DNA from: an uncultured Bdellovibrionales bacterium | Lineage (GTDB): Bacteria; Patescibacteriota; Minisyncoccia; Moranbacterales; UBA1568 | Direction of reading: 5' to 3' | Length of the DNA stretch: 64,000 nucleotides | Assembly: GCA_964384235.1 (NCBI GenBank) | Contig: CAYLJX010000003.1 | Location: 72,389 to 136,388 of the forward strand | Shown here: positions 11,748 through 62,160 of the stretch, in pieces | Numbering within the stretch: the stretch's first letter is position 1 | Layout: each line of letters begins with the position of its first letter | Notes under the pieces: generated by a model | What the model saw: the letters and a program-made list of their open reading frames with translations, nothing else | The model's database searches: none | Told to the model about the DNA's origin: nothing | Made by a program: the position numbers and the translations under genes

Positions 11748-11805
11748 CACTCCGCTCGGAAACGAAAGTGAACTTTCGTTTCGCTCGCTACGTTTGGTAA
11801 TAAAA
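11748..11805. repeat. Intergenic repeat family A, copy 1 (hairpin gaaacgaaag-tgaa-ctttcgtttc followed by GCTCGCTACGTTTGGTAATAAAA)
   Basis: Near-identical copies at 45887-45942 (same orientation) and 25081-25128 (reverse complement). Confidence 0.7.
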
Positions 11806-11889
11806 TCCGCCACAAAGGCGGATCTATGAAAATCTGCGAGATTGAATGTGAGGATTTAAAATTCTGAGTGCAGTTCGAGGAAGAGTCGA

Positions 11890-11960
11890 GGAGTGAAGTA
11901 AGCCGTACTGATGCAAGTACGGCGTCGAGCACCGGAAACTCTGACAAAGAAATGCGCCAG
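11890..11960. repeat. Intergenic repeat family C, copy 1 (hairpin GCCGTAC-tgatgcaa-GTACGGC followed by GTCGAGCACCGGAA...ACAAAGAAATG)
   Basis: A second copy at 30345-30414 is about 85% identical; both lie just 3' of minus-strand genes. Confidence 0.7.
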
Positions 11961-11974
11961 AATTTGAAATCCGT

Positions 11975-13207
11975 CTACTTTTTCATCTTCCGACGAATGA
12001 AGGCTGGAATCTCCAGGTCTTCTTCCTCCACCAGTTCCTTGGTCTCATGACGGACGGGAGCGGTGCGCGGCTGGATCTTCTCCTCGATGATCATGACCGG
12101 CTGCTCGATCTTGCGCGTGGGGAACACGATCTCTTCTTCCGGTTCCTCTTCGGGAAGCGTTTCTTCGGCTTCTTCGCGGGTGACGGAAAGGCGCGGCTTG
12201 GCGGCGGGTGTCACGCGGTTGGTGATGAGACCCAAGGAAGGCTCCTTGCGGGCGACATCGAAACCGGTCGCCACCACCGTGATCTGGATCTCACCCTTGC
12301 GGATCGTCTCGTCCATGACCGCGCCGAAGATGACTTTGGCATTGGGATCGATGTTTTCGGTGATGATATTGGCCGCTTCGTTGATCTCGAGCATGGCGAG
12401 GTCGCTCGAACCGGAAATATTGAAGAGCACGCCCTTGGCGCCGTCGATCGAAAGCTCGAGAAGCGGGCTGTTGATGGCGGCCTTGGCAGCTTCGGCGGCC
12501 CGGTTCTCACCGGAGGCGATACCGATACCCATGAGGGCGCTTCCGGAGTCTTCCATGATGGCGCGCACGTCAGCGAAGTCGACGTTCACGATACCGGGCT
12601 TGGTGATGAGGTCGGAGATACCCTGTACGCCCTGACGCAGCACGTCGTCGACGATGCGGAAGGCGTTCACGAGCGTCATCTTGCGGTCGATGATGGAGAG
12701 CAGCTTGTCATTAGGGATGGTGATGAGCGTGTCGACGCGGTCCTTGAGATTTTCGAGGGCCTCCTCGGCGATGGCACGCCGCTGCGATCCTTCGAAGGTG
12801 AACGGCTTGGTCACGACACCGACCGTGAGTGCGCCGAGTTCCTTGGCGGTCTCCGCGACGATCGGCGCGGCACCGGAACCGGTCCCGCCACCGAGACCGC
12901 AGGCGACAAACACCATGTCGGCCCCCTTGAGGACTTCCTGGATCTCATCACGGTTCTCCTCGGCCGCCTGGCGACCGATCTCCGGATTCATCCCGGCCCC
13001 GAGACCCTTGGTCAGGTTCTTGCCGATGTGCACTTTCTCCTGTGCCTTGGAATGATGCAGAGCCTGCGCATCGGTATTGATAGCGACGAACTCCACCCCC
13101 TTGATTTTGGCATCGATCATCCGGGAAATAGCGTTGTTTCCGGATCCCCCAACGCCCACGACTTTGATCTTGGCAAAGGTCTCGATATCGGGCTTGATTT
13201 CAGCCAT
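11975..13207 (-). CDS. ftsZ: Cell division protein FtsZ
   Basis: [26 protein letters not shown]...[10 protein letters not shown] tubulin signature; start taken at the MAEIK Met. Confidence 0.95.
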
Positions 13208-25553: not shown

Positions 25554-25672
25554 AAAAGACTCTTCTTTTTCTCAAGCCTCCATACCCTATTTTAGCCTTT
25601 TTTCAGAAAAAGAGCAACCTAAAAAAGTAGCCAATTTATGCTTTGAATGAGAGAAAAATCGTAAGGACAGAT

Positions 25673-25795
25673 CTCCTTTTTCGGAGTCTTGAAGATCCGA
25701 AAGCGGGCATGGTTCCGCCGAAGAGGCGGAGAGCGAAGGAGCTTCAGGAGTGAGGTTGCACGCCGGGCAACCGAGCGACTCCGAAAAGGGAGGCT
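25673..25795. ncRNA. Structured RNA element E, copy 1 (~120 nt)
   Basis: Terminal helix ccuuuuucggaguc / gacuccgaaaaggg plus internal stems CCGCC/GGCGG, GAAG/CUUC and GGUUGC/GCAACC; copy 2 at 49926-50047 carries compensatory stem changes. Confidence 0.5.
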
Positions 25796-25904
25796 GGCCG
25801 GCGATATGAACTACCCGTCCGTATCCGAGAACCGTACGGCGAGGAAAGAGAAACAAAGAGCGGAAAGGAAAAGAAAAACCGGCATTCAAAGCCGGTTTTT
25901 CTCA

Positions 25905-26462
25905 TTAGGCTCGAGAGACGTACGTGCCTTTTTCGGTGTTGATGATGAGGCTGTCTCCGGTCTTGATGAAGAGAGGCGTCGTCACCTGGAGACCAGTTTC
26001 GAGCGTCACCACCTTGTCCCCGCCCGAGGCCGTGTCGCCCTTGATGCCGGGAGGCGCATCGGTCACCTTGAGCGTCACCTTGACTGGGATCTCGACGTTG
26101 ATCGGCTGGCCATCGAAGTTGAGCACGGTCACTTCCGTCCCCTCGACGAGGTAGTCAGCGATATGGCCGAGCACGTTCTTGGAAAGCGAGAACTGGTCGT
26201 AGTCTTCCTGATCCATGAACTGATAGTCATCGCCCTCATGGTAGAGGTACTGGGCTTGGGATTTGACGATCTCCGTCTCCTCGACCTTGTCGGCCCCTTG
26301 GAACGTGTGGTCGATGATACCGCCCGTGAGGAGGTTCTTGAGCTTGGTCCGAAGCACCGCGCCGGCCCGCCCCATCTTGGAATGCTGGTAGTCCATGACG
26401 AGGTACGGCTCGCCGTTAAAAAGGATGCGCTTGCCGGTTTTTATTTCAGTGAGAGTCAACAT
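25905..26462 (-). CDS. efp: Elongation factor P
   Basis: MLTLTEIKTGKRILFNGEPYLVMDYQHSKMGRAGAVLRTKLKNL. Confidence 0.95.
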   Translation of the reverse strand: MLTLTEIKTGKRILFNGEPYLVMDYQHSKMGRAGAVLRTKLKNLLTGGIIDHTFQGADKVEETEIVKSQAQYLYHEGDDYQFMDQEDYDQFSLSKNVLGHIADYLVEGTEVTVLNFDGQPINVEIPVKVTLKVTDAPPGIKGDTASGGDKVVTLETGLQVTTPLFIKTGDSLIINTEKGTYVSRA

Positions 26463-26465
26463 ACT

Positions 26466-26660
26466 TTAGCGGACAAGATAAGGAATCAATGCCATGTAAC
26501 GGGCGCGCTTGATGGCGTTCGCGAGGTGGCGCTGCTCCGTAGCGGAGAGACCGTAACGCTTCGGCGGATAGATTTTTCCCTGTGAGTTGAGGAACTTGCG
26601 CAGAAAATACGCGTCCTTGTAGTCGACTTTCTGCAGTTTTTTGGTCATCGCTGCTTCCAT
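26466..26660 (-). CDS. rpsR: 30S ribosomal protein S18
   Basis: [49 protein letters not shown]. Confidence 0.9.
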
Positions 26661-26730
26661 AGGTTATATGAATGAGGAATTAGGAATAATGAGTTACGTG
26701 GCTATGACTTTTGTCTTTTGGATGAGATGC

Positions 26731-26815
26731 GAGGAAACGCCGAGCACCGAACCGAGGCGTATAGGGAAATACGGCGAGGGAGGCGCGGAGGCGATTGACA
26801 AAGCAGCTCGCCAAA
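26731..26815. repeat. Structured repeat element D, copy 1 (ssb-rpsR spacer)
   Basis: GACGCCGAGCACCGAACCGAG..hairpin..GAGGGAGG..GCGCC AAAAA; about 75% identical to copy 2 with compensatory hairpin changes (CGUAU/AUACG versus ACGUAC/GUACGU). Confidence 0.55.
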
Positions 26816-26830
26816 AACGAAAGTCAGAGC

Positions 26831-27328
26831 TTAAAAAGGGACATCTTCGATCTTAATTTCCTCCTTTTCATCATCGAGATTGATGGTCGGGATCTCTTCT
26901 TCGACCGGGGCGCTCTTCTGTGCCGCGGCTCCTGCGCCTGCTCCGGCTGCTGCCGGCGCGGCGCTCCGAGCTCCCTGGTACCCGCCCTGACCCGAGCCTT
27001 GGGCGCGATTGCCGAGCTGCATGTTCTCGCCGACGATTTCCGTCACGGAACGTTCGGTGCCGTCCTTGGCCGTGTACTTTCTCGTCTGGAGACGTCCTTC
27101 GACGAAGCATTCCTGACCCTTGGTGAGGTACTGCCCGGCGATTTCCGCGAGCCGTCCCCAGAGCACGACGTTGTGGAACTCGGTGCGTTCCTGGCGCGTG
27201 CCACCCTTGTCCGTCCAGAAGCTGTTGGTTGCCATGGAGAACGACGCGACCGACTGCCCGCCCGGCGTGGTACGGATCTCCGGATCCCTCGTGAGCCGCC
27301 CGACGATGATCGCTTTGTTGACGTTCAT
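26831..27328 (-). CDS. ssb: Single-stranded DNA-binding protein
   Basis: MNVNKAIIVGRLTRDPEIRTTPGGQSVASFSMATN..OB fold, Gly-rich linker, acidic DDEKEEIKIEDVPF tail. Confidence 0.9.
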   Translation of the reverse strand: MNVNKAIIVGRLTRDPEIRTTPGGQSVASFSMATNSFWTDKGGTRQERTEFHNVVLWGRLAEIAGQYLTKGQECFVEGRLQTRKYTAKDGTERSVTEIVGENMQLGNRAQGSGQGGYQGARSAAPAAAGAGAGAAAQKSAPVEEEIPTINLDDEKEEIKIEDVPF

Positions 27329-27382
27329 AACACTTGGTGAGATAAAGGTTGATTAAGAAAAATTTCATTTTTTGGATGCTAT

Positions 27383-27472
27383 CCGAGGAGACGCCGAGCA
27401 CCGAACCGAGACGTACACATCGGTACGTTGAGGGAGGAGCGCAGGCAGTCGACAAAGGAGAGCGCCAAAAAA
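27383..27472. repeat. Structured repeat element D, copy 2 (rpsF-ssb spacer)
   Basis: See copy 1; on the + strand it contains TCGACA-N17-ATAAAT. Confidence 0.55.
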
Positions 27473-27479
27473 TAAATTT

Positions 27480-27977
27480 TTAAATGTCCAACTTCTCCTT
27501 GAGCTGCTGATCGATCTGTTCCTGGGAAACCGGCTTAACCTCTTCCTTGGGAGCGACCGGGGCCTGCGGCATCGGACGCACCGCACCGCGGCGCTCGTAG
27601 CGGCCGCTCCGAACCTCCGTGCGCGGACGTTCCACACGCTCGATCGGTTTGAGCTCAGGCAGGTCGTCGGCCCGCACCACGATGAAACGCAGCACGTCGG
27701 CATTGAGCTGAAGGGCGCGGTTGATCGTGGTAAGCGGATGGATTTCCGTCTCAACTTCCTTCTCATCGGCGTCCGGCAGCGTAAACCGGCGGGCGATATA
27801 GGTCCCGCGCACCTCTTTCTTCACCGGGTAGGCGAGCTTGCGCTTCTCCTCGGTCTGCGGCGGGAGAAATGTTCCGCCGTTCGACACCACGGTCTGCTCC
27901 ACGCCTTCGCGGATACCCGGAAGCGAAGCTTCCTTGGACTCTCCCACGAGATAAAACAATTCGTATTCTACAGCCAT
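27480..27977 (-). CDS. rpsF: 30S ribosomal protein S6
   Basis: MAVEYELFYLVGESKEASLPGIREGVEQ...; start taken at the MAVEY Met (27977). Confidence 0.9.
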   Translation of the reverse strand: MAVEYELFYLVGESKEASLPGIREGVEQTVVSNGGTFLPPQTEEKRKLAYPVKKEVRGTYIARRFTLPDADEKEVETEIHPLTTINRALQLNADVLRFIVVRADDLPELKPIERVERPRTEVRSGRYERRGAVRPMPQAPVAPKEEVKPVSQEQIDQQLKEKLDI

Positions 27978-28182
27978 ATGACAGCTTCTAGCTTTCAGCT
28001 TCGTCAGCTTCTTAGCTTTATTAAAAAGTAAAAACCTGCCAACGAAGAAAATCTGCATCCGGCAGGATGATGCCGCTTCTATCCCTTCGATACACTCAGG
28101 GCGGAAGCCGCGTCGGACTTTCTCGGTTGTTTGCAGAGTCTATCACAGACTCTCCTTATTGGCAAGGGCCCTTTCTTGCGAC

Positions 28183-29400
28183 CTATTGCACACCGAGTCC
28201 CATCGGTGCGGCAGGCGGAGTGGTATCCCCGCCTCCACCGCTTGATGCAATAGTGATGGCGGTGCCGTTCGTGTTGCAGCTGTTGTTGTCGTCGCAGACG
28301 TACAGGTAGGCCGTGGATCCGTCGGAGAACGTTCCGGCATTCACGGTCGCGGTGATGCTCCCCGTACTCCAGACGGTCGGCTTCTGGTATTCACGCACCG
28401 TCGAGGCGGCATACGTGCTCGCGTTCCCCAACACGACACGGTTGAGACCATAGCTCAGGTAGACGTCGGCGAAGTAGCGGCGGTTGTTCGTACTGCGGGT
28501 ACGCGCATAGCCGCCGGCCGAGTCGACGACCAAACCGCCCTGTACTCCGCCGGCCAACACCGCCGTGATACCGACATAGGAATGATCGTACTGCTCCTGA
28601 TTGCGTGCCAGACTGCCGTCATTGACAAGGTCGAACCAGCCCGTCACATCGGAGTCGTCCCAGCGTGCCATGAACTCCTGCTTGATCCAGGCCTGCGTCG
28701 GGTACAGCTCGCAGCCAGACTCCCAGCAATAGATGAAGGGACCGTTGCCGTTGTTGTCCGGCCAGTCCATCGCCCGCGCACCGCAGCCGTATGGCGGTCC
28801 CGGAGTGATCTCGTCCGCATAACCATGCTGTCCCACGCCGGTGGTCGCCGAATCCCAAACCGTGCTCCCATAGCTCGTATAGAACGTGCAGCCTGAGAAG
28901 GGGGACGGTCCTGCCGTAAAAAGGTAGGTCTTAAAGTTGTTGTCGTCCCCGAACACCCAGTTCGGATGCACCCGATAGTAGAACGACATGAGCGTATAGA
29001 ATGGGTACCCGCTCGGGGTGGGTCTGTTCTTATCGATATTCACCCCGTTCGACGGGTTATCGGTATTGAGATGGACCCCGGTCAGATACTTGGTAATCCG
29101 GGGATGCGGCATCGCCACGCCGCCCACCCCTGTCGAATACGCCATATCATACGGGGCGCCGAGAGCCGTCGGACCGTACGAAGTCCACGGGGAGGACGCC
29201 AGACTCGAATACTGACCCTGATCGAACGCCACGGGAATGGCATTGGCACCGACCCCAAACCCCGAACCGCTTACCGTCACTGATCCGCCGTGCGACCAGG
29301 TACCACTCGTATTGCTAATACTCGGCGCAGCAGAAACTATGGACGGAAAAAGAACTACGGCAATGGTCAGGATGAACAGAAATGGGAGCGAATGTTTCAT
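28183..29400 (-). CDS. Secreted jelly-roll (ConA/LamG-like?) protein, paralog 1
   Basis: Signal peptide MKHSLPFLFILTIAVVLFPSIVSA; ends ...SSGGGGDTTPPAAPMGLGVQ*; related to the downstream paralog. Confidence 0.65.
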   Translation of the reverse strand: MKHSLPFLFILTIAVVLFPSIVSAAPSISNTSGTWSHGGSVTVSGSGFGVGANAIPVAFDQGQYSSLASSPWTSYGPTALGAPYDMAYSTGVGGVAMPHPRITKYLTGVHLNTDNPSNGVNIDKNRPTPSGYPFYTLMSFYYRVHPNWVFGDDNNFKTYLFTAGPSPFSGCTFYTSYGSTVWDSATTGVGQHGYADEITPGPPYGCGARAMDWPDNNGNGPFIYCWESGCELYPTQAWIKQEFMARWDDSDVTGWFDLVNDGSLARNQEQYDHSYVGITAVLAGGVQGGLVVDSAGGYARTRSTNNRRYFADVYLSYGLNRVVLGNASTYAASTVREYQKPTVWSTGSITATVNAGTFSDGSTAYLYVCDDNNSCNTNGTAITIASSGGGGDTTPPAAPMGLGVQ

Positions 29401-29404
29401 ACCG

Positions 29405-30271
29405 TCATTGTACACTAAGCCCCGTCGGCGCGGCAGGCGGAATAGTATCAGACCCGCCCTGCGTCATCGTACCGGCTGACAGAGAACCGGCACCACCTGT
29501 TCCGGTATCCGTATAGATCTCAAAGTCGTCCCAATACAGGTAGTTGACTGCATCGTGAGCACAGCAGCCTTCCGATGCACTCCAGTTCGATCCCATTAAA
29601 AACGTCGTCCAACTGGGCGTATATGAGTAAAAACCGGACTGCGTCAGGGTATAACCAGTAACCTCTTTCTGAAGAACGTCGTCTTCCCAGAGGCGGATAA
29701 TCCCATTGGAGGCATGTTCATATATGTAGACTTCTATTTTATGCCAAGCACGGTCTCCGGCGTGAGAAATATCTCCCCAATAAGTTCCCAGCCATACTTC
29801 ACTGCTCGTGTTATATCCGGAAAACGCCCCTGTAATAGCCCCGTCTATGGGGTTGTTGTCGACCTGCAGATCAAGAAAAGTGGCTGAGTTTCCGAATCTG
29901 GCAATCTTCGGTCCTGTGCCTCCGTTCAGGCTTGCGTCGCGACGAATCCAAAAGCGGTACATGACCTCATTCGTATAAGACGCCATATCATTGAGTACCA
30001 TTGCGGTCTGGGTTCCAACTCCTGCCGAATTACCATCGCTTTCCCAGTTGCAGCGCGCCATATAGCTTCCGGAACGAGTCCCGGCCAATCCATCCGCGGC
30101 CGTCGTGACTGCGGAGCACTTCTCGTTTGGCGCATCCTGCGACCAGAGATTCGTGTTCCCCGATTCCCAGCCGTCATAGAACACCCGGCCGGCAGCGGAA
30201 GCGTCACTCGCGACAAGAAAACCGATGACAAGCGACAGGAGAAATTGCACTGAGAACAAGGATCGAGTCAT
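29405..30271 (-). CDS. Secreted jelly-roll (ConA/LamG-like?) protein, paralog 2
   Basis: Signal peptide ..LLSLVIGFLVASDASA; ends ...GGSDTIPPAAPTGLSVQ*. Confidence 0.65.
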   Translation of the reverse strand: MTRSLFSVQFLLSLVIGFLVASDASAAGRVFYDGWESGNTNLWSQDAPNEKCSAVTTAADGLAGTRSGSYMARCNWESDGNSAGVGTQTAMVLNDMASYTNEVMYRFWIRRDASLNGGTGPKIARFGNSATFLDLQVDNNPIDGAITGAFSGYNTSSEVWLGTYWGDISHAGDRAWHKIEVYIYEHASNGIIRLWEDDVLQKEVTGYTLTQSGFYSYTPSWTTFLMGSNWSASEGCCAHDAVNYLYWDDFEIYTDTGTGGAGSLSAGTMTQGGSDTIPPAAPTGLSVQ

Positions 30272-30344
30272 ATTAAAACTTCATTCTCCCTACAATTATA
30301 TACAGGACGTACGTCTTTGAGCACAGTTTGAGGCGCAAGCAAGG

Positions 30345-30414
30345 AGCGGAGTAAGCCGTACTGATGCAAGTACGGCGTCAAGCACCGGAGCTTGTAACAA
30401 AGAAATGTGCCAAA
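30345..30414. repeat. Intergenic repeat family C, copy 2
   Basis: gagtaagccgtactgatgcaagtacggcgtcaagcaccggag...acaaagaaatgtgcca. Confidence 0.65.
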
Positions 30415-30424
30415 GATGTAGTCC

Positions 30425-31735
30425 CTACAGGAGTTCCTTGTAGTGATCCGCCCAGTAAAGGATGCCGTTGATATAGGGCGCGTAGCTCGTGCCGAGGTAA
30501 GCGGCGGCGGCTTTCTTCCAAGCGCTCCGGTTCCCCTGGTCGACGCCGGGGACCTTGTCGAGCTTGAGGGCCATCGCCATCACGCCGTCGGTCAGGTTCC
30601 ACGGGCTCGGCGGACGATGTCCCGTAGCCGAAGCGACGGCGGACTTGTAGGCGTTCCAGGTGTCCGGCATAAACTGCGCGACGCCCATCGCTCCCCCGGT
30701 CCCGGTATAGCCGCGCGGATTGCATGACACCTTCTGTTTCTTGTAATCGATACCGAGCTCCTTGGTGATCCCCTTGAAAAGGTCGCGGCGCCACTGAAAA
30801 GTCTGCCAGGACCGCTTGGAGAGTTTTCCGGACTTGTAGTTTTTCTCCGCACCAGCCTCCACTTCTGCGTAGGTGCAACCACCCACATTAGCCCCGAGGT
30901 TGGTCTCCATCTTGAGCACGCCGAAGAGGAACCCTTTCGGTACGCCGGTTGCCTTGCTCGCGAACTCCACCGCCTCCTTGATATCCTTGGCGTTGTAGGA
31001 CTTGCCCAAGAGCTTGGCCAAATCGCCCTGCAATTCGTTGAGCTCGCGGTTCAGGCGGTTGATATCCGCCTGCTGCTCGTTGATATCGGACTGGGTTTCC
31101 GTTTTCTCCGAAGTCAGGATCGCCTTCTGTTTGTTCTTGAGAGCGATGAGTTCCTCATGGTCTTTCTTCACGTCTTCGAGAGAGACCTTCTCATCGGCCA
31201 CCCGGGCCTTCACGCTGGCAATCCCGCGCACCACCTCCTGCATCTTCTCCTGGGTCGAAAAGAGACTGTCGTTGTCCTGGAGAAAATCACCATCTTCCGA
31301 GAACATCACCTTGGCAAAGGGGACGTCCGTCGCGAAGTACATTTCCTGAAGAAGTTTTTTCAGGACCTCGCGTTCCAGCTTAAGCTGAAGTTCCAGGGTG
31401 GCGATTTCTTGTTCCTTCTGATCGATGGTCTGCTCGGTCGAAGTGAGGAGCACGAGCGTCTTCTGGATCACCTGCTGCGTCGAGGAGAGCGAAGAATTGA
31501 TCTGGCTCAGGTCCTGTTCCAGAGCTGTCTTCTTCTTGGTCGCGTCCTTGATCTTCTTCTCAAGCTTCTCGATGTCGTCCTGGATCTCATCCGCATCCTC
31601 TTCCGCAGACGCCAAACCGGCCCCGATCGGAGAAAGGACAAGCGGCGCAGCAATCACAAGACTCCCGAACAGGGTGAGCGCAAAGAAAAATCGTTTTTGT
31701 TTTGAGACAAAACCCATAGGGTTCCAGTATATCAC
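30425..31735 (-). CDS. Secreted coiled-coil protein with a C-terminal lytic transglycosylase (MltB/SLT_2-like) domain
   Basis: Signal/TM anchor, a long EnvC-like coiled coil, then ..GAMGVAQFMPDTW.., the MltB-family signature. Confidence 0.75.
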   Translation of the reverse strand: MIYWNPMGFVSKQKRFFFALTLFGSLVIAAPLVLSPIGAGLASAEEDADEIQDDIEKLEKKIKDATKKKTALEQDLSQINSSLSSTQQVIQKTLVLLTSTEQTIDQKEQEIATLELQLKLEREVLKKLLQEMYFATDVPFAKVMFSEDGDFLQDNDSLFSTQEKMQEVVRGIASVKARVADEKVSLEDVKKDHEELIALKNKQKAILTSEKTETQSDINEQQADINRLNRELNELQGDLAKLLGKSYNAKDIKEAVEFASKATGVPKGFLFGVLKMETNLGANVGGCTYAEVEAGAEKNYKSGKLSKRSWQTFQWRRDLFKGITKELGIDYKKQKVSCNPRGYTGTGGAMGVAQFMPDTWNAYKSAVASATGHRPPSPWNLTDGVMAMALKLDKVPGVDQGNRSAWKKAAAAYLGTSYAPYINGILYWADHYKELL

Positions 31736-49887: not shown

Positions 49888-49925
49888 AAAAGCTACGAAC
49901 CTTTCCTTTCGAACGGAAGGCAAAG

Positions 49926-50047
49926 ATCCCTTTTCGGAGTCTTGAAGATCCGGAAGCGGGCATGGTTCCGACTGACAAGGAGGAGAGCGAAGGAGCTTCA
50001 GGAGGGAGCCCGTACGCCGGACGGGCGAGCGACTCCGAAAAGGGAGG
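49926..50047. ncRNA. Structured RNA element E, copy 2
   Basis: ~85% identical to copy 1, with GGUUGC/GCAACC replaced by GCCCGU/ACGGGC (both pair). Confidence 0.5.
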
Positions 50048-50142
50048 CTTTGCCGGGAGAGAGAATAAAGCACTAGAAAACTTTTCGTAAAAAACAAACG
50101 CCCGGAAGAAGACTTCTCTTCCGAGCGATACAACAGTGCGAC

Positions 50143-57174: not shown

Positions 57175-57311
57175 GGCAATGGTCTCCTTCTAGAGTAAAG
57201 AACCAATTCCATCGTCATGCATGCGGCATCTCTCGCGTAGGCTTGGAAACGTGCCAAGCTGACACGTTCTCCCGTCTCCGCCCAGGAGCGTCTCTCCCCT
57301 ACCGTGGGAAG

Positions 57312-58505
57312 ATGGACTTCTCTCACGATATCGCGCTCTTCGCCCGGACCAATGCCAGGCGAAGCTTCCAGCCCTTCGGCCTCCGTCAGGCCGACCGCCT
57401 GTTTCACCTGTATGCCATAGGGAAGACGGGAACGGGCAAGTCGACCCTCCTCGAGACGCTCGCCCTTCAGGACATGCGCGCGGGCCGCGGATTGGCCGTC
57501 ATCGATCCCCATGGCGACTTGGTGCTACGCCTCAAGAAGGCGATGCCGCCCTCGCGCCGAGACGATCTGCTTTTCTTCGACGTCCCGGATGTCTCCCAAG
57601 CCTTCGGCTACAACCCGCTGCGCAAGGTGCGGCCCGACAAGATTCCCCTGGCCGCCTCGGGACTCCTGGAGGCCTTCAAGAAGCTCTGGACGGATGCCTG
57701 GGGCGTACGCATGGAGCATGTCCTGCGCAATGCTCTCTTCGCGCTCCTCGAATACGGAGAGGCGACCCTTCCGGACATCCTTCGCCTCATGACGGACAAC
57801 GCCTTCCGATACCGCGTGTCAGCGACGCTCACCAACGAACAGGTGAAGGCCTTCTGGCAGAACGAGTTCCCCAAGTACCACCCTCGCTACCGCCAGGAGA
57901 GCATCGCTCCCATCCAGAACAAGGTCGGCGCCTTCCTGGCCGATCCCAGGCTCTACCGGATCTTCACGGCTCCTCCCGTCGATCTGCGTTTCCGCAGAGT
58001 CATGGACGAGGGGAAGATCCTCCTCGTCAATCTCTCCAAGGGACAACTCGGCGAAGACAGCGCCTCGCTCCTCGGGGCTCTCCTCGTCACGACGCTCTCC
58101 TTGGCGGCCTTCTCCCGGGCGGATATGCCGGAAGCGGAGCGGAAGCCTTTCTTCATCTTCGTCGACGAATTTCAGTCGTTCACGACCCTTTCGGTGGCCG
58201 GGATGATCTCGGAATTGCGTAAGTACAACGTGGGGCTCGTCCTCGCCAACCAGCACCTCCACCAGCTCGAGCCCGATGTCCGGCACGCGGTCCTGGGGAA
58301 CGTGGGAACGCTCGTCGTCTTCCGGGTCGGCCCTGAGGATGCCCGCTTCCTCGCCCATGAGTTCGAGGGAAGCTTCTCGCCCTTCGACCTCATGAGCCTC
58401 GCCAACCATGACATCTACCTTCGCCTCATAATCGACGGGACTCCCAGCCCGCCCTTCAGCGCGACCACCATCAAGCCAGATGATCTTGATCGCTTGAGGA
58501 TGTGA
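57312..58505 (+). CDS. TrwB/TraD (type IV coupling protein)-like P-loop ATPase of the FtsK-HerA superfamily, soluble form
   Basis: Walker A YAIGKTGTGKSTLLETL followed by VIDPHGD (compare TrwB GATGTGKSVLL...VIVDPNGD); Walker B FFIFVDEFQSF; ..VGLVLANQHLHQL.. sensor; no N-terminal TMs. Confidence 0.75.
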   Translation: MDFSHDIALFARTNARRSFQPFGLRQADRLFHLYAIGKTGTGKSTLLETLALQDMRAGRGLAVIDPHGDLVLRLKKAMPPSRRDDLLFFDVPDVSQAFGYNPLRKVRPDKIPLAASGLLEAFKKLWTDAWGVRMEHVLRNALFALLEYGEATLPDILRLMTDNAFRYRVSATLTNEQVKAFWQNEFPKYHPRYRQESIAPIQNKVGAFLADPRLYRIFTAPPVDLRFRRVMDEGKILLVNLSKGQLGEDSASLLGALLVTTLSLAAFSRADMPEAERKPFFIFVDEFQSFTTLSVAGMISELRKYNVGLVLANQHLHQLEPDVRHAVLGNVGTLVVFRVGPEDARFLAHEFEGSFSPFDLMSLANHDIYLRLIIDGTPSPPFSATTIKPDDLDRLRM

Positions 58506-58551
58506 GGCGCATACTCTCATGCGCTTTCCATAGGTTTCAGAGGGGGGGGAC

Positions 58552-59064
58552 ATGGGACACGCCAAGCCGACGGAGATCTTGTCGCACTGGAACACCCGCG
58601 TCGACGGCATGCAGCAGTCGTCCCACGAGTTTTACGGAGCGGTCGAACGCACCCTCGATACGCATAGTCTCAAGGACTACAAGACAGAGCGCGTGAACAT
58701 CTCGGAAGGCGGCATCTTCTCCTCGAAGCGCGAGTACCTCCAGGTGCGCCGCGCCGACATCGTCTTCCACATCTGCGCTGCGCCGTATGGCAACGGCTTC
58801 TTCCTCTCCTGGTGGCTCGGACGGATCGAGTCGGGCTTCTGGGCCTGGATCTCCGACATTCCGGTGATCGGCATGCTCGCGCAGAATTTCTTGAAACCCC
58901 TCACCTACTACAAGCTCGACACCGCCGCGATGTTCCAAGGCGTGGTCCATTCCGTCGTCCTCGAAGTCCTCGACGGCCTGACGACGGAGAAGGGCATCCG
59001 GGCGCTGGCTGAGAGCGAACGGAGGCCCGTCATGCGCGACTTCTTCGCCCGCCTCGGAGGCTAA
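58552..59064 (+). CDS. Hypothetical protein (170 aa) between the two ATPases
   Basis: Protein-like ORF with one Trp-rich hydrophobic segment. Confidence 0.45.
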   Translation: MGHAKPTEILSHWNTRVDGMQQSSHEFYGAVERTLDTHSLKDYKTERVNISEGGIFSSKREYLQVRRADIVFHICAAPYGNGFFLSWWLGRIESGFWAWISDIPVIGMLAQNFLKPLTYYKLDTAAMFQGVVHSVVLEVLDGLTTEKGIRALAESERRPVMRDFFARLGG

Positions 59065-59079
59065 CGCCGGTCTCCGAGC

Positions 59080-62000
59080 ATGTCCGGCCTCTCGCCTGCG
59101 GAAATCATCACCACGAGCTTCTATGCGTGGGAGGTACGCGGGCGCGGGTGGCAGGTAGCGGACTATCCCGTCTGCCTTGAGCCGCCGTTTCGGCATTGCT
59201 TCGTCCTGCCCGATCTCGTCGCGGAAACGAAGCCGATCGATGACGGAAAACGGCCGACGTTCCTCAGTTCCGTGGTCGAGGGCCTGCGGAGCGCCTTCGC
59301 GCTCGACGCCACCCCTGCGCCCGAGCCCGCCCCACCGTACGAGGAACCAGCCCCCTATCCGGCACTTGCGTCCGGACCGCTCACCGCGTTTTGCGTGACG
59401 GTGCCGATGGATCACAAGAGCCATCCGGAAACGACAATCCGCCTTCTCGTCGCGCTGTCGACCTGCTGCTTCCCCGTGTCCCTCGAACTCATCGGCTGCG
59501 AAGGCCAGGTCATCATCCAACTGGTCTGCGCCGACACCGACCAGGCGCATGTGGCCGCGCAGTGCCTCGCCTACCTTCCCGACGCTGCGGTCATCGAAAC
59601 CGAGGACCTCCTTGCGAGCGTCTGGGATCGACGGCGGGAGCACGCCGTCGTCGATTTCGGGCTCTCTCAGGAATTCTTTCTGCCGTTTGATGGACTGAAG
59701 AGCCAGAAGCTCGACCCGTACCTCTCCCTTGTTCCCTCCCTCGCCAGGGCGGATCGAGACGAGGCGATCCTCCTACAGGTCCTCTTCCAAGGCGTCCAGA
59801 ATCCGTGGGGCAAGGCTATCCGCGACGCCCTCGATGATGGCCAGGGCGGTTCTGTGTTCGCGGACGCCCCAGCATTTCCCCGGCTGGCCGATGAGAAGCT
59901 GAAGACCTCCCTCTTTGCCGTCTCGGTCCGTGTCGCCGCACAGGCACAGGAGGCGGAACGAGCGTGGCACTTGGCCCGTTCGACCGGCGCCTTTTTCCTC
60001 CAATTGGGCCGACCCGGAGCCAATGAACTCCTCCCGCTTGAGAACGACGGCTACCGAGAGGATCTTCATGTCGAAGCCATCCTCACGCGGCAGTCGTACC
60101 GCCTTGGGATGATCCTCTCGGCCGACGAGTTGGCGGCGCTCGCCCATCTTCCCGATGCCGCGGTCCGTCATCCGTCCCTCACGCGGGAGGAGCGGCGGAC
60201 GAAGCCTCTTCCCGTCGAAGCCTCCGGACATCCCCATGTCCTCGGCGAAAACCAGCACCGCGGGAAGATGTCCGTCGCGTCGCTCAGTGATGGGCAGCGG
60301 CTCCAGCACACCTGGATAGTCGGCGCCTCCGGGACGGGAAAGTCGACGCTTCTCCTGAACCTCATCACTGAGGACATTCGGCTCGGTCATGGTGTCGCGG
60401 TGCTGGATCCGCACGGCGACCTGATCGACGACATCTTGGCGCGGGTGCCAGACAGCCGCACGAGCGATGTCATCGTCTTCGACCCGAGCGATACTGAGTG
60501 GCCCATCGGATTCAATATCTTCTCAGCCGGAAGCGAGGGCGAGCGGGCGCTCTTGGCTGCCGATCTCGTCGGGATCTTCCGGCGGTTCTCGACATCTTGG
60601 GGCGACACCATGAGCGCGGTGCTCGGGAACGCGGTCCTCGCGATCCTCGAGCACCCGCAGGGTGGGACGCTGCTCGACCTCAGGCGGCTCCTCGTCGATG
60701 AGCGCTTCCGCCGCGCGTACCTGGAGGACGTGGCGGACGAGGAGGTCGCCTTCTTCTGGTCGCGCGAGTACCCCGTGATCGGCTCACGTTCGATCGGCCC
60801 GATCCTGACCCGGCTTGACACCTTCCTGCGGCCCAAGGTCATTCGGCATATCGTCGGACAGCCGGATGGGAAGCTCCATTTCTCCGACGTCATGGCGTCG
60901 AAGCGCATCTTTCTCGCGAAGCTCTCCCATGGCCTCATCGGCGAGGAGAATGCCTACCTCCTCGGCAGCCTCATCGTGGGAAAGTTTCTCGGACTCGCGC
61001 TCGCGCGGCAGCAGCTCGCGAAGGATGAACGCGCCGCCTTCTTCCTGTATGCCGACGAGTTTCAGCACTTCCTCACGCCCTCCATGGAAACGCTGCTCAC
61101 GGCGGCGCGAAAGTACGCGCTTGGGGCAACGCTCGCCCATCAGACGATGGCGCAGCTCCGGGACTCGCCCAAGGTGGAAGGCGCGCTTCTCGGCAACGCC
61201 TACACGCGCATCGTCTTCCGAACCGGGGAAAGCGATGCGCGGCAGCTGGCCGAGGGGTTTTCCTTCTTTGAGGGGCGCGACATCCACGGTCTGGGACGGG
61301 GCGAGGCGATCGCCCGGCTCGGATCGAGCGGAAATGACTTCAACCTGAAAACGCTGCCGCTCCCCGGCGTGCCGCCTGGGGCGGAGGAGCGGCGCTCCCA
61401 GATCATCTTCCGCTCGCGCGAGCGCTACGGGACGCCGATCGAAGCGCTGCGGGCGCTCCTCGGGGCACGGTACAGAGCAAGCGAGGAACCGGCCGAAGCG
61501 AAGCCGAGGCCGCCGCTCGAGGAGGCACCGCCCGCGCTCTCGGGTGCGGGAGAGCCGATCGCCGCTTCCTGTGAGACACCACGGGCAAGCGTTCCGGAAC
61601 CAAAGACCGGTGAGCAACTGATGGCGCGCCGGGTACCGATCAATGTCGCAGCGGTCACCCCGGGACGGGGCGGGCAGGAGCACAAATACCTCCAGCACCT
61701 CGTGAAACGCTTGGCCGAAGAGCGCGGTTTCCGCGCCACGATTGAAGAGGCCGCGGGAGATGGCCGGGCAGACGTGGTACTGAGCAAGAGTACGCAGCGA
61801 ATCGCCTGCGAGATCTCAGTGACGACGGACCATATCCACGAGGAAGAGAACTTGAGGAAGTGCCTCGCGGCCGGATTCGAACAGATCGTCTTTGTCGTAC
61901 CCGACCGGAAACGAAGGGAGAAACTGAAAGGACATTTTCAGGAGATTGCCGGAATCGACTCGTTGGCGGTGATATCGACGGAGGAGATCGTCGCGTACCT

Positions 62001-62160
62001 CGACGGGCTGGATACCGGATCGGCCGTGGCCGAATCGACCGTGCGAGGCTACAAGGTGAAAGTCACGCGGCAGACGGTCTCGCCAGAGGAGCTGGCCGGA
62101 AGGCGCTCGGCCATCGCCGAGGTGATCGCCCGGTCGCTCCTCAAACACAAGGACGTTTGA
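59080..62160 (+). CDS. Large TrwB/HerA-like ATPase fused to an unknown N-terminal domain and a C-terminal Hjc/restriction-endonuclease-like (PD-(D/E)xK fold) domain
   Basis: Walker A WIVGASGTGKSTLLLNL..VLDPHGD, Walker B FFLYADEFQHF, paralogous to 57312..58505; the C-terminus ..LVKRLAEERGFRATIE..GDGRADVVL..RIACEISVT resembles the Hjc ..KGFAVVR..PDIIA..IEVKS pattern. Confidence 0.75.
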   Translation: MSGLSPAEIITTSFYAWEVRGRGWQVADYPVCLEPPFRHCFVLPDLVAETKPIDDGKRPTFLSSVVEGLRSAFALDATPAPEPAPPYEEPAPYPALASGPLTAFCVTVPMDHKSHPETTIRLLVALSTCCFPVSLELIGCEGQVIIQLVCADTDQAHVAAQCLAYLPDAAVIETEDLLASVWDRRREHAVVDFGLSQEFFLPFDGLKSQKLDPYLSLVPSLARADRDEAILLQVLFQGVQNPWGKAIRDALDDGQGGSVFADAPAFPRLADEKLKTSLFAVSVRVAAQAQEAERAWHLARSTGAFFLQLGRPGANELLPLENDGYREDLHVEAILTRQSYRLGMILSADELAALAHLPDAAVRHPSLTREERRTKPLPVEASGHPHVLGENQHRGKMSVASLSDGQRLQHTWIVGASGTGKSTLLLNLITEDIRLGHGVAVLDPHGDLIDDILARVPDSRTSDVIVFDPSDTEWPIGFNIFSAGSEGERALLAADLVGIFRRFSTSWGDTMSAVLGNAVLAILEHPQGGTLLDLRRLLVDERFRRAYLEDVADEEVAFFWSREYPVIGSRSIGPILTRLDTFLRPKVIRHIVGQPDGKLHFSDVMASKRIFLAKLSHGLIGEENAYLLGSLIVGKFLGLALARQQLAKDERAAFFLYADEFQHFLTPSMETLLTAARKYALGATLAHQTMAQLRDSPKVEGALLGNAYTRIVFRTGESDARQLAEGFSFFEGRDIHGLGRGEAIARLGSSGNDFNLKTLPLPGVPPGAEERRSQIIFRSRERYGTPIEALRALLGARYRASEEPAEAKPRPPLEEAPPALSGAGEPIAASCETPRASVPEPKTGEQLMARRVPINVAAVTPGRGGQEHKYLQHLVKRLAEERGFRATIEEAAGDGRADVVLSKSTQRIACEISVTTDHIHEEENLRKCLAAGFEQIVFVVPDRKRREKLKGHFQEIAGIDSLAVISTEEIVAYLDGLDTGSAVAESTVRGYKVKVTRQTVSPEELAGRRSAIAEVIARSLLKHKDV

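Follow-up and report, generated by a model that had tools for sequence, protein, structure and literature searches.

Two related hairpins in the spacers of the rpsF operon

We analyzed a stretch of 64,000 nucleotides (nt) from an uncultured bacterium of the Patescibacteria (GenBank assembly GCA_964384235.1, contig CAYLJX010000003.1, positions 72,389 to 136,388), called the window below. Its minus strand carries rpsF, ssb, rpsR and efp, in that order (Table 1), and the orthologous loci of relatives gave Pfam matches for S6, SSB, S18 and EF-P. The best named relatives of the SSB and FtsZ proteins of the window belong to Candidatus Moranbacteria (Patescibacteria). Two related imperfect hairpins, W1 and W2, occupy the ssb-rpsR and the rpsF-ssb spacer, respectively. 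They are copies of a repeat that is structured, selected, dispersed, phylogenetically patchy and unrelated to control by the ribosomal proteins S6 and S18 (S6:S18). On balance, we lean towards the view that they belong to a family of dispersed imperfect palindromes of 110-130 nt that occurs in some Patescibacteria and is comparable with the REP, ERIC, BOX and attC elements.

A repeat search paired positions 26709-26822 with 27363-27476 at 76% ungapped identity, and a MAFFT alignment of W1 with W2 over ~110 nt gave a column identity of 84%. A 21-nt core, GACGCCGAGCACCGAACCGAG, was matched exactly at 27390 and with one mismatch at 26736, the only two matches in 64 kb; it was matched twice in none of 100 shuffled sequences. 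An earlier note on this DNA had described paired related elements in both spacers, and these data bear it out. The note had placed the two copies correctly but drawn them too short (Table 1), as the W1 hairpin extends to the ssb stop codon.

Folding gave one long interrupted hairpin for each copy. W1 folded at -57.5 kcal/mol (z -6.9) on the plus strand and at -42.8 kcal/mol (z -4.7) on the minus strand, and W2 is closed at its base by a T6/A6 stem. The two copies share the 3' end CGCCAAAAA, with CTCGCC in W1. Contrary to the suggestion that an outer GGCGC/GCGCC stem is kept, the actual stem pairs GG-A-UG plus NNN with NNN plus CGCC, including a bulged A and a U.G wobble, and it differs between the copies: GAGAUGC/GCAGCUC in one is GCUAUCC/GGAGAGC in the other, with three compensatory changes. 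The compensated terminal hairpin that had been proposed (CGUAU/AUACG versus ACGUAC/GUACGU) was confirmed. No intrinsic terminator was called at W1 or W2, and both hairpins are followed by an A-run rather than a U-run.

Table 1. Genes, repeat copies and rpsF leader in the window
Feature	Position	Strand	Evidence
rpsF promoter and structured leader, conserved	27978..28165	-	11/26 predicted pairs compensatory, 5 lineages
rpsF (ribosomal protein S6)	27480..27977	-	Pfam Ribosomal_S6 on orthologues
ssb (single-stranded DNA-binding protein)	26831..27328	-	open reading frame and SSB homologues
rpsR (ribosomal protein S18)	26466..26660	-	open reading frame and orthologous loci
efp	25905..26462	-	next gene after rpsR
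W1, full imperfect hairpin between ssb stop and rpsR	26700..26833	+ (purine-rich strand, antisense to operon)	covariance-model match 26714-26823, 110.5 bits
W2, hairpin between rpsF stop (27480-27482) and ssb	27366..27477 (about)	+	113 bits; fold z -5.45 on +
W3, divergent member behind ftsZ	11860..11969	+	62.7 bits, E 3.5e-16
W4, divergent member behind murein-hydrolase-like gene	30313..30422	+	55.8 bits, E 4e-14

Copies of the element lie behind unrelated genes

We built a covariance model from eight copies (W1, W2 and relatives from metagenomes) and ran it on the window with the filters off. Besides W1 and W2 it matched two divergent members, W3 and W4, and nothing further below an E value of 0.1. 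W3 begins 5 nt past the ftsZ stop codon (11975-11977) and precedes the ftsZ terminator (about 11797-11822, minus strand). W4 begins 2 nt past the stop codon of a murein-hydrolase-like gene of 436 amino acids (aa; 30425..31735, minus strand) and ends 41 nt before the start of the next gene (30271). An origin of W3 and W4 by gene duplication was rejected, since the ftsZ and murein hydrolase genes upstream of them are not paralogues.

Further copies were recognized by the model in the sequences designated L089, L126, L128, L132, L134, L136, L139 and L141. Five of these (L126, L128, L132, L134 and L136) are independent loci obtained from a metagenome scan. A collection of genomes was scanned with the 19-nt sequence CGCCGAGCACCGAACCGAG, which gave at least 120 matches, nearly all of them chance occurrences in high-G+C genomes; among the matches listed, the only true element was that of the Candidatus Yonathbacteria genome L089, where a full copy lies between sufB and the next gene. 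Divergent copies lie behind a sigma-factor gene in L089 and between a glycosyltransferase gene and a GH57-like gene in L126. The neighbors of the family are unrelated to one another (ftsZ, murein hydrolase, sufB, the sigma factor rpoD, secY-adk, a cca-like gene and glycosyl hydrolase).

All copies are extragenic: each follows a stop codon and precedes a gene or a terminator. The element is always found 0-20 nt past a stop codon, and at six loci it lies 12-53 nt before the next start. Four copies in 64 kb were found in the window, two in 14 kb in L126 and two in 8 kb in L089. Some copies have decayed: those of L136 and L141 carry an 8-nt deletion, and that of L134 is without the 3' basal part. 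Three independent short-read (Logan) assemblies of the window's strain (L190, L191 and L192) end at the identical base within W3, in its terminal hairpin, 68 nt past the ftsZ stop codon (window position about 11907). These shared contig breaks are typical of a repeat and suggest that near-identical further copies exist elsewhere in the genome.

Nothing relevant was found in Rfam for the whole window (Rfam 15, gathering score), for the operon region or for the relatives L001 and L003, nor in the literature on repeats, miniature inverted-repeat transposable elements and structured RNAs of the Patescibacteria, also known as the candidate phyla radiation (CPR). The family is previously undescribed, within a known category of bacterial repeats.

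The hairpin is modular and covaries

Four parts make up each copy. Outermost is a stem of copy-specific sequence; inward follow a conserved basal module, a covarying middle stem and a variable inner module with a cap. The 5' side of the basal module reads (U)GG-A-UG, three variable pairs, UGC or UUC, and then GAGG(A/C)(A/G); the 3' side reads (G/A)AC(A/G)AA, GCA or GAA, three variable pairs, and then CGCC(A)A. This module contains an internal loop (GAGGAA/GACAAA), a bulged A and, in 9 of 13 copies, a U.G wobble, and its 3-bp (base pair) stem UGC/GCA is swapped for UUC/GAA in a compensatory manner. The middle stem of 6 bp covaries, with three to four pair types per column pair.

The inner module divides the copies. 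W1, W2, L089a, L126a, L128, L132 and L134 form a subfamily, designated D. Here the inner module folds into an irregular helix in which steps of 2 bp (bracketed) alternate with invariant purine loops, GAGCACCGAACCGAG on one side facing GAGGGAGGAGCG on the other: GA[GC]A[CC]GAA[CC]GAG opposite UGA[GG]GA[GG]A[GC]GCA. W3 and W4 have the same loops with the steps flipped (GA[GG]A[GU]GAA[GU].. opposite ..[GC]A[CC]GGAA), while L089b and L126b have plain stems of 9-12 bp instead. The cap is nearly always CGUAC-loop-GUACG. Beyond the conserved part the stem extends for 8-20 bp in copy-specific sequence, usually to the stop codon.

When 13 copies were aligned, 93.6% of the cells were paired and changes on both sides were seen in 20 of 31 pairs. 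Since this alignment had been fitted to the model, the pair counts are somewhat inflated; stems checked by hand agree with them. The covariation score was 0.556, as compared to 0.176 for shuffled alignments (0 of 500 reached the observed value) and at most 0.12 for slid partners.

Other explanations were tried and dropped. An origin of the outer stems by inverted duplication of the upstream coding end found no favor, as reliable pairing ends at or near the stop codon. A shared reading frame, 'PSTEPR', might have indicated a small peptide; however, hairpins of 18 versus 19 nt shift the frame, and there is no conserved start codon. Likenesses to the K-turn, the hammerhead, the hairpin ribozyme and the sarcin-ricin motif failed a check, which was by eye only.

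A collection of viral sequences gave no match to the D core and, with one basal pattern, a single chance match (L146). A looser basal pattern matched 42 times; L183 alone among these matches was recognized by the model, with a weak score of 27 bits. L183 (IMGVR_UViG_3300014815_000009), a contig labelled viral, has two such A+T-richer relatives of the element (356-461 and 2700-2805), each of them sense-oriented and immediately ahead of an RHS/YD-repeat-like gene.

Presence and absence among relatives

The operons of relatives were collected through homologues of SSB. In L003-L005 (SSB identity 79%) the rpsF-ssb and ssb-rpsR spacers measure 20 and 23 nt. The corresponding lengths in L001 (84%) are 27 nt and 108 nt, the latter of unrelated sequence. 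L142 (83%) has an rpsF-ssb spacer of 37 nt, and its contig stops 71 nt after ssb. In L002 (81%) an unrelated structured insert of 150 nt lies between rpsF and ssb, followed by an unrelated ssb-rpsR spacer of 94 nt. The closer Moranbacteria relatives L001-L004 and L143-L145, scanned with the model over about 64 kb, gave no match, compared to four in the window. The site 3' of ftsZ is empty in L143-L145, whose FtsZ proteins are 97%, 89% and 88% identical, and consists there of the stop codon, 16 nt, a simple terminator and a promoter. Copies have therefore been gained and lost even among close relatives. The D core is near-identical in the Moranbacteria-like window and in Yonathbacteria L089.

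Two groups of relatives hold one of the two spacer copies. In L136 and L141 (SSB 87%) the W1 orthologue is present, with the 8-nt deletion; the rpsF-ssb spacer is unrelated and W2 is absent. W1 is ~97% conserved between the window and L136, as compared to 85% for the neighboring ssb DNA. L139 and L140 are 99.1% identical to the window at the DNA level from upstream of rpsF to exactly the ssb stop codon, with W2 unchanged. Past this stop they have a spacer of 28 nt, divergent rpsR and efp genes and no W1. The homology break (L139 6495-6530, window 26831) coincides with the W1 edge, and rpsR beyond it is about 80% identical; L139 has an extra rpsR-efp spacer of 118 nt. The W1 edge is thus a recombination breakpoint in L139. 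An orthologous copy of W4 is present at L139 2907-3016.

The distribution bears on the earlier proposal that the elements serve this operon. Regulation of the rpsF operon through an S6:S18 leader is a known precedent, that leader is likewise a structured RNA associated with rpsF-ssb-rpsR, and two copies in the two spacers of one operon would suit autoregulatory sites for S6:S18 (or SSB). However, W1 and W2 follow ssb and rpsF rather than sit in the rpsF 5' untranslated region (UTR), and rpsF has a conserved leader of its own upstream, distinct from both (see below). The spacers of relatives, to which the earlier note had pointed, are without the element in L001, L003 and L142 and partly so in L139 and L136, and the family occurs at many unrelated genes. 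No Rfam family was matched, either by the whole window at the gathering score or by 26400-28200 at E<=10. Because relatives' operons are without the element and copies lie at unrelated genes, it is not an operon-specific feature, and we consider S6:S18 or SSB sites extremely improbable. What stood of the proposal is that the elements are structured and selected: they do recur at many unrelated loci, but with strong covariation rather than without it.

Several observations were made at the same spacers. The insert of L002 (3318-3467) is closed by a 20-bp stem, CCCGGTAGTGAAACTTCGAC/GTCGAAGTTCTACTACCGGG, and folds at -47.9 kcal/mol (z -4.8); rpsF-ssb spacers seem to have been colonized repeatedly by different palindromic elements. 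Directly past the rpsF stop codon, L136 (700-715) and L141 (175-190) have a 15-nt fragment, TTGACAAAGTAGCTC. It corresponds to the 3' basal part of W1, TTGACAAAGCAGCTC, except that its orientation is sense; another copy or a rearrangement may have left it behind. In L141 (940-1045) the W1 orthologue joins the 3' half of rpsR directly and the first half of rpsR is missing; as the coverage of this contig is only about 2x, the junction may reflect either a deletion variant or an assembly error. Soon after ssb, the L142 contig ends in (TAAACCC)n telomere-like repeats (1190-1226), probably an assembly chimera.

Probable preservation of the fold on the purine-rich, mostly antisense strand

Both flanking genes have the purine-rich strand as their antisense strand at 10 of the 11 Patescibacteria loci, the exception being L126b. 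In all 11 intact copies this strand folds more stably than its complement, by 3-24 kcal/mol, part of this difference being loop bonuses for purines. On the purine strand, G.U exceeded A.C by 23:8 in the consensus helices and by 16:2 in the copy-specific outer stems (39:10 overall), and both outer-stem A.C cases came from the single sense-oriented copy. When G.U pairs were counted in each strand's own minimum free energy structure, the strands were not discriminated (25 versus 21). Preservation of the fold on the purine-rich strand is therefore moderately established. The opposite asymmetry would be expected if deamination were biased towards the exposed sense strand, and selection on the purine-strand fold is hence the simpler reading. 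The sense (mRNA) strand still folds, at -30 to -43 kcal/mol, and the conserved loops consist of pyrimidines only on that strand. A U-run follows the hairpin of L126a and L132 on both strands, and on the gene strand it resembles that of an intrinsic terminator.

One possibility is that the copies are cis-acting mRNA elements with a host function, that is, intercistronic or 3'-UTR hairpins that are bound or cut by a trans-acting protein and were recruited repeatedly behind highly expressed housekeeping genes. They could then serve in RNase III-like processing, stabilization, protein-assisted termination or translational decoupling. The constant position past stop codons and shortly before the next start at six loci, the stability of the sense strand, the gene-strand U-runs of L126a and L132, the strong covariation with invariant loops, and the conservation of W1 beyond that of the adjoining coding DNA are all consistent with this. 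On the other hand, the wobble asymmetry and the folding energies favor the strand that is not mRNA, and loops made of pyrimidines only would be unusual for protein-binding RNA motifs. Close relatives are without the element at the same essential genes, L126b lies in the opposite orientation, and W1 and W2 have neither a U-run nor a called terminator. We judge this explanation rather unlikely, though it is the main rival.

The purine strand might instead be transcribed convergently with the upstream gene and be a structured small-RNA gene, an antisense regulator of the 3' end of the upstream gene, or a terminator or insulator against antisense transcription. The preserved fold, the purine-rich conserved loops, which are typical of functional RNAs, and the purine-strand U-runs of L126a and L132 agree with such a role. 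However, no conserved promoter for the purine strand was found. The earlier note had pointed to a promoter-like sequence on the plus strand of W2, and a promoter scan did find a match there (TCGACA-N18-TAAATT). It has only 9 of 12 consensus positions, points out of W2 and overlaps GACAAAG, a loop motif conserved throughout the family; the other copies have no -10 box. Since the loop is conserved and the -10 box is missing elsewhere, the resemblance is probably fortuitous and not a genuine promoter. A-runs rather than U-runs follow W1 and W2, presence is patchy among close relatives, and genes of this kind inside the tight spacers of essential operons would cause transcriptional interference. 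A small-RNA, antisense or insulator role is thus distinctly unlikely in our estimation.

The invariant loops GAGCACCGAACCGAG/GAGGGAGGAGCG, the conserved basal module, the swappable inner modules and the antisense-strand fold could also describe a strand-specific structured module. This would be either the substrate of an undescribed Patescibacteria system of single-strand-specific mobilization or recombination, or an antisense RNA, protein-binding or catalytic, at the 3' ends of housekeeping genes. We consider this unlikely.

Comparison to known repeats and a possible mode of maintenance

The closest parallels to the family are found among extragenic palindromes. The ERIC (IRU) elements of enterobacteria are intergenic imperfect palindromes of 127 bp, and the BOX and RUP elements of pneumococci and the Correia (NEMIS) elements of Neisseria are similar. 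Like ERIC-type repeats, the present elements are imperfect palindromes of 110-130 nt that lie inside operons or close behind genes, are uneven in copy number between related genomes, contain no transposase and are presumably co-transcribed as hairpins. The modularity of BOX recalls the basal and inner modules seen here. However, no sequence relationship to ERIC-type repeats is known or was detectable. The family also differs from these in its 10:1 orientation bias, its invariant purine loops with covarying stems and its streamlined Patescibacteria host, and from Correia and RUP elements in having no defined terminal inverted repeats or TA duplications.

A second parallel is provided by REP/BIME elements, which are associated with RAYT transposases (Y1 HUH), and by the end hairpins of IS200/IS605. 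These too are strand-specific hairpins with conserved bulges or mismatches, and REP elements lie outside genes, often at gene 3' ends, in numerous scattered copies. REP and IS200/IS605 hairpins are recognized as single strands. In contrast to the present single hairpin of ~110 nt, REP elements are 20-40 nt long, clustered and marked by a GTAG-type 5' tetranucleotide, a motif that the family does not have. No RAYT or TnpA gene was found among ten scanned open reading frames (ORFs) of the window.

The attC sites of integrons (for example the VCR of Vibrio cholerae) are imperfect palindromes of 57-141 nt directly past the stop codons of ORFs. They preserve structure over sequence, with extrahelical bases and a variable terminal structure, and their recombinogenic folded strand is antisense to the ORFs, as the purine strand usually is here. 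The family could therefore be read as integron-type attC sites, or other tyrosine-recombinase sites, that mark gene cassettes; its similar size, conserved extrahelical base and position past stop codons point the same way. However, the R''/R' core sites are absent, as no RYYYAAC...GTTRRRY pair occurs on either strand of 11 copies. The flanking genes (rpsF, ssb, rpsR, ftsZ, secY and others) are essential or core genes in conserved synteny, not a cassette array, and no intI or other integrase gene was present among the ten ORFs scanned. Sites of this kind are very improbable in our view.

We return to the dispersed repeat as the explanation that we favor. The family colonizes short intergenic spacers directly past stop codons. 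For its maintenance or spread the element would depend on a protein that recognizes a folded single strand, either single-stranded DNA or antisense RNA, in analogy to the recognition of REP hairpins by RAYT transposases and of attC sites by integron integrases. Poor tolerance of the purine strand on mRNA, where it would bring Shine-Dalgarno-like GGAGG runs and high stability, may account for the orientation bias. In the rpsF-ssb-rpsR operon, W1 and W2 would be passengers that, judging from their position, are co-transcribed and place a hairpin of -30 to -43 kcal/mol between cistrons. Such a hairpin may have side effects: it could block exonucleases, undergo RNase III-type processing or cause partial pausing.

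Several points weigh against a dispersed repeat. A Pfam scan of the ten window ORFs found no transposase, recombinase or reverse transcriptase that could serve as a mobilizing enzyme. No fixed termini or target-site duplication could be recognized, as the stem runs into copy-specific flanks, and filled and empty sites are not alignable. The identities of W1 with W2 (76%) and of W3 with W4 (81%) indicate that the copies in the window are old, and no recent burst was seen. The greater conservation of W1 relative to ssb, the invariant purine loops and the covariation would also fit an RNA function that benefits the host, and the covariation counts carry the upward bias of the fitted alignment mentioned above. 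Finally, the repeat explanation presumes that the purine strand would be single-stranded or transcribed, and the promoter scan found no convincing promoter to drive it.

A conserved leader upstream of rpsF and other features of the window

The structured leader that precedes rpsF (Table 1) is not part of the hairpin repeat family. Its promoter on the minus strand, TTGCCA-17-TAGACT at 28165-28137, varies among lineages between TAGACT and TAGGCT with TG. Downstream lies ACAACNGAGAAAGUCCGACG, a block that is conserved and single-stranded; two covarying hairpins come next, the second of which is terminator-like and has a U-run. This arrangement is kept in the window, L001 (3265-3469), L002 (2640-2822), L003 (3305-3485) and L136 (85-293), and the leader has no match in Rfam. 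It is a better candidate for S6:S18 autoregulation of the operon than W1 and W2, and could be an attenuator or a new ribosomal-protein leader. No recognizable Shine-Dalgarno sequence precedes the starts of rpsF, ssb, rpsR, efp or the gene at 30271, and their leaders are rich in A and U.

A second, unrelated pair of structured repeats occurs at 25640-25810 and 49900-50065 of the window. The two are 86% identical and closed by a 14-bp stem, CCUUUUCGGAGUC/GACUCCGAAAAGG, and their inner hairpin is compensated (GGUUGC/GCAACC versus GCCCGU/ACGGGC). For one copy the neighbors are the efp terminator and a membrane-protein gene; the second is flanked by convergent genes. The family-D model and Rfam matched neither copy. 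At 57243-62160, two ORFs (420 and 1026 aa) carry coupling-protein domains of type IV secretion systems (T4SS; TrwB_AAD_bind) at a G+C content of 0.63-0.65, as compared to about 0.56 for the window on average. This region may be an integrated conjugative or T4SS-like region.

Significance

Patescibacteria (CPR) genomes are regarded as highly streamlined. The window nonetheless carries one structured repeat about every 16 kb, and the essential operons and loci that host the family include rpsF-ssb-rpsR, ftsZ, secY and sufB. Annotation of these repeats prevents their confusion with operon-specific riboregulators and directs attention to the conserved rpsF leader. The repeats also coincide with a recombination breakpoint (the ssb stop codon in L139) and with assembly breaks, which makes them relevant to binning and strain analysis.

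Three features are unusual and leave room for a more novel mechanism: the fold on the antisense strand, the invariance of the purine loops and the modularity of the inner part. If the elements are functional RNAs, they would add a lineage-specific level of post-transcriptional control to organisms that seemingly use few Shine-Dalgarno sites. If they are mobile, they would point to an unrecognized mobile-DNA system and, because the core is almost identical in Moranbacteria-like and Yonathbacteria genomes, to exchange between distant CPR lineages.

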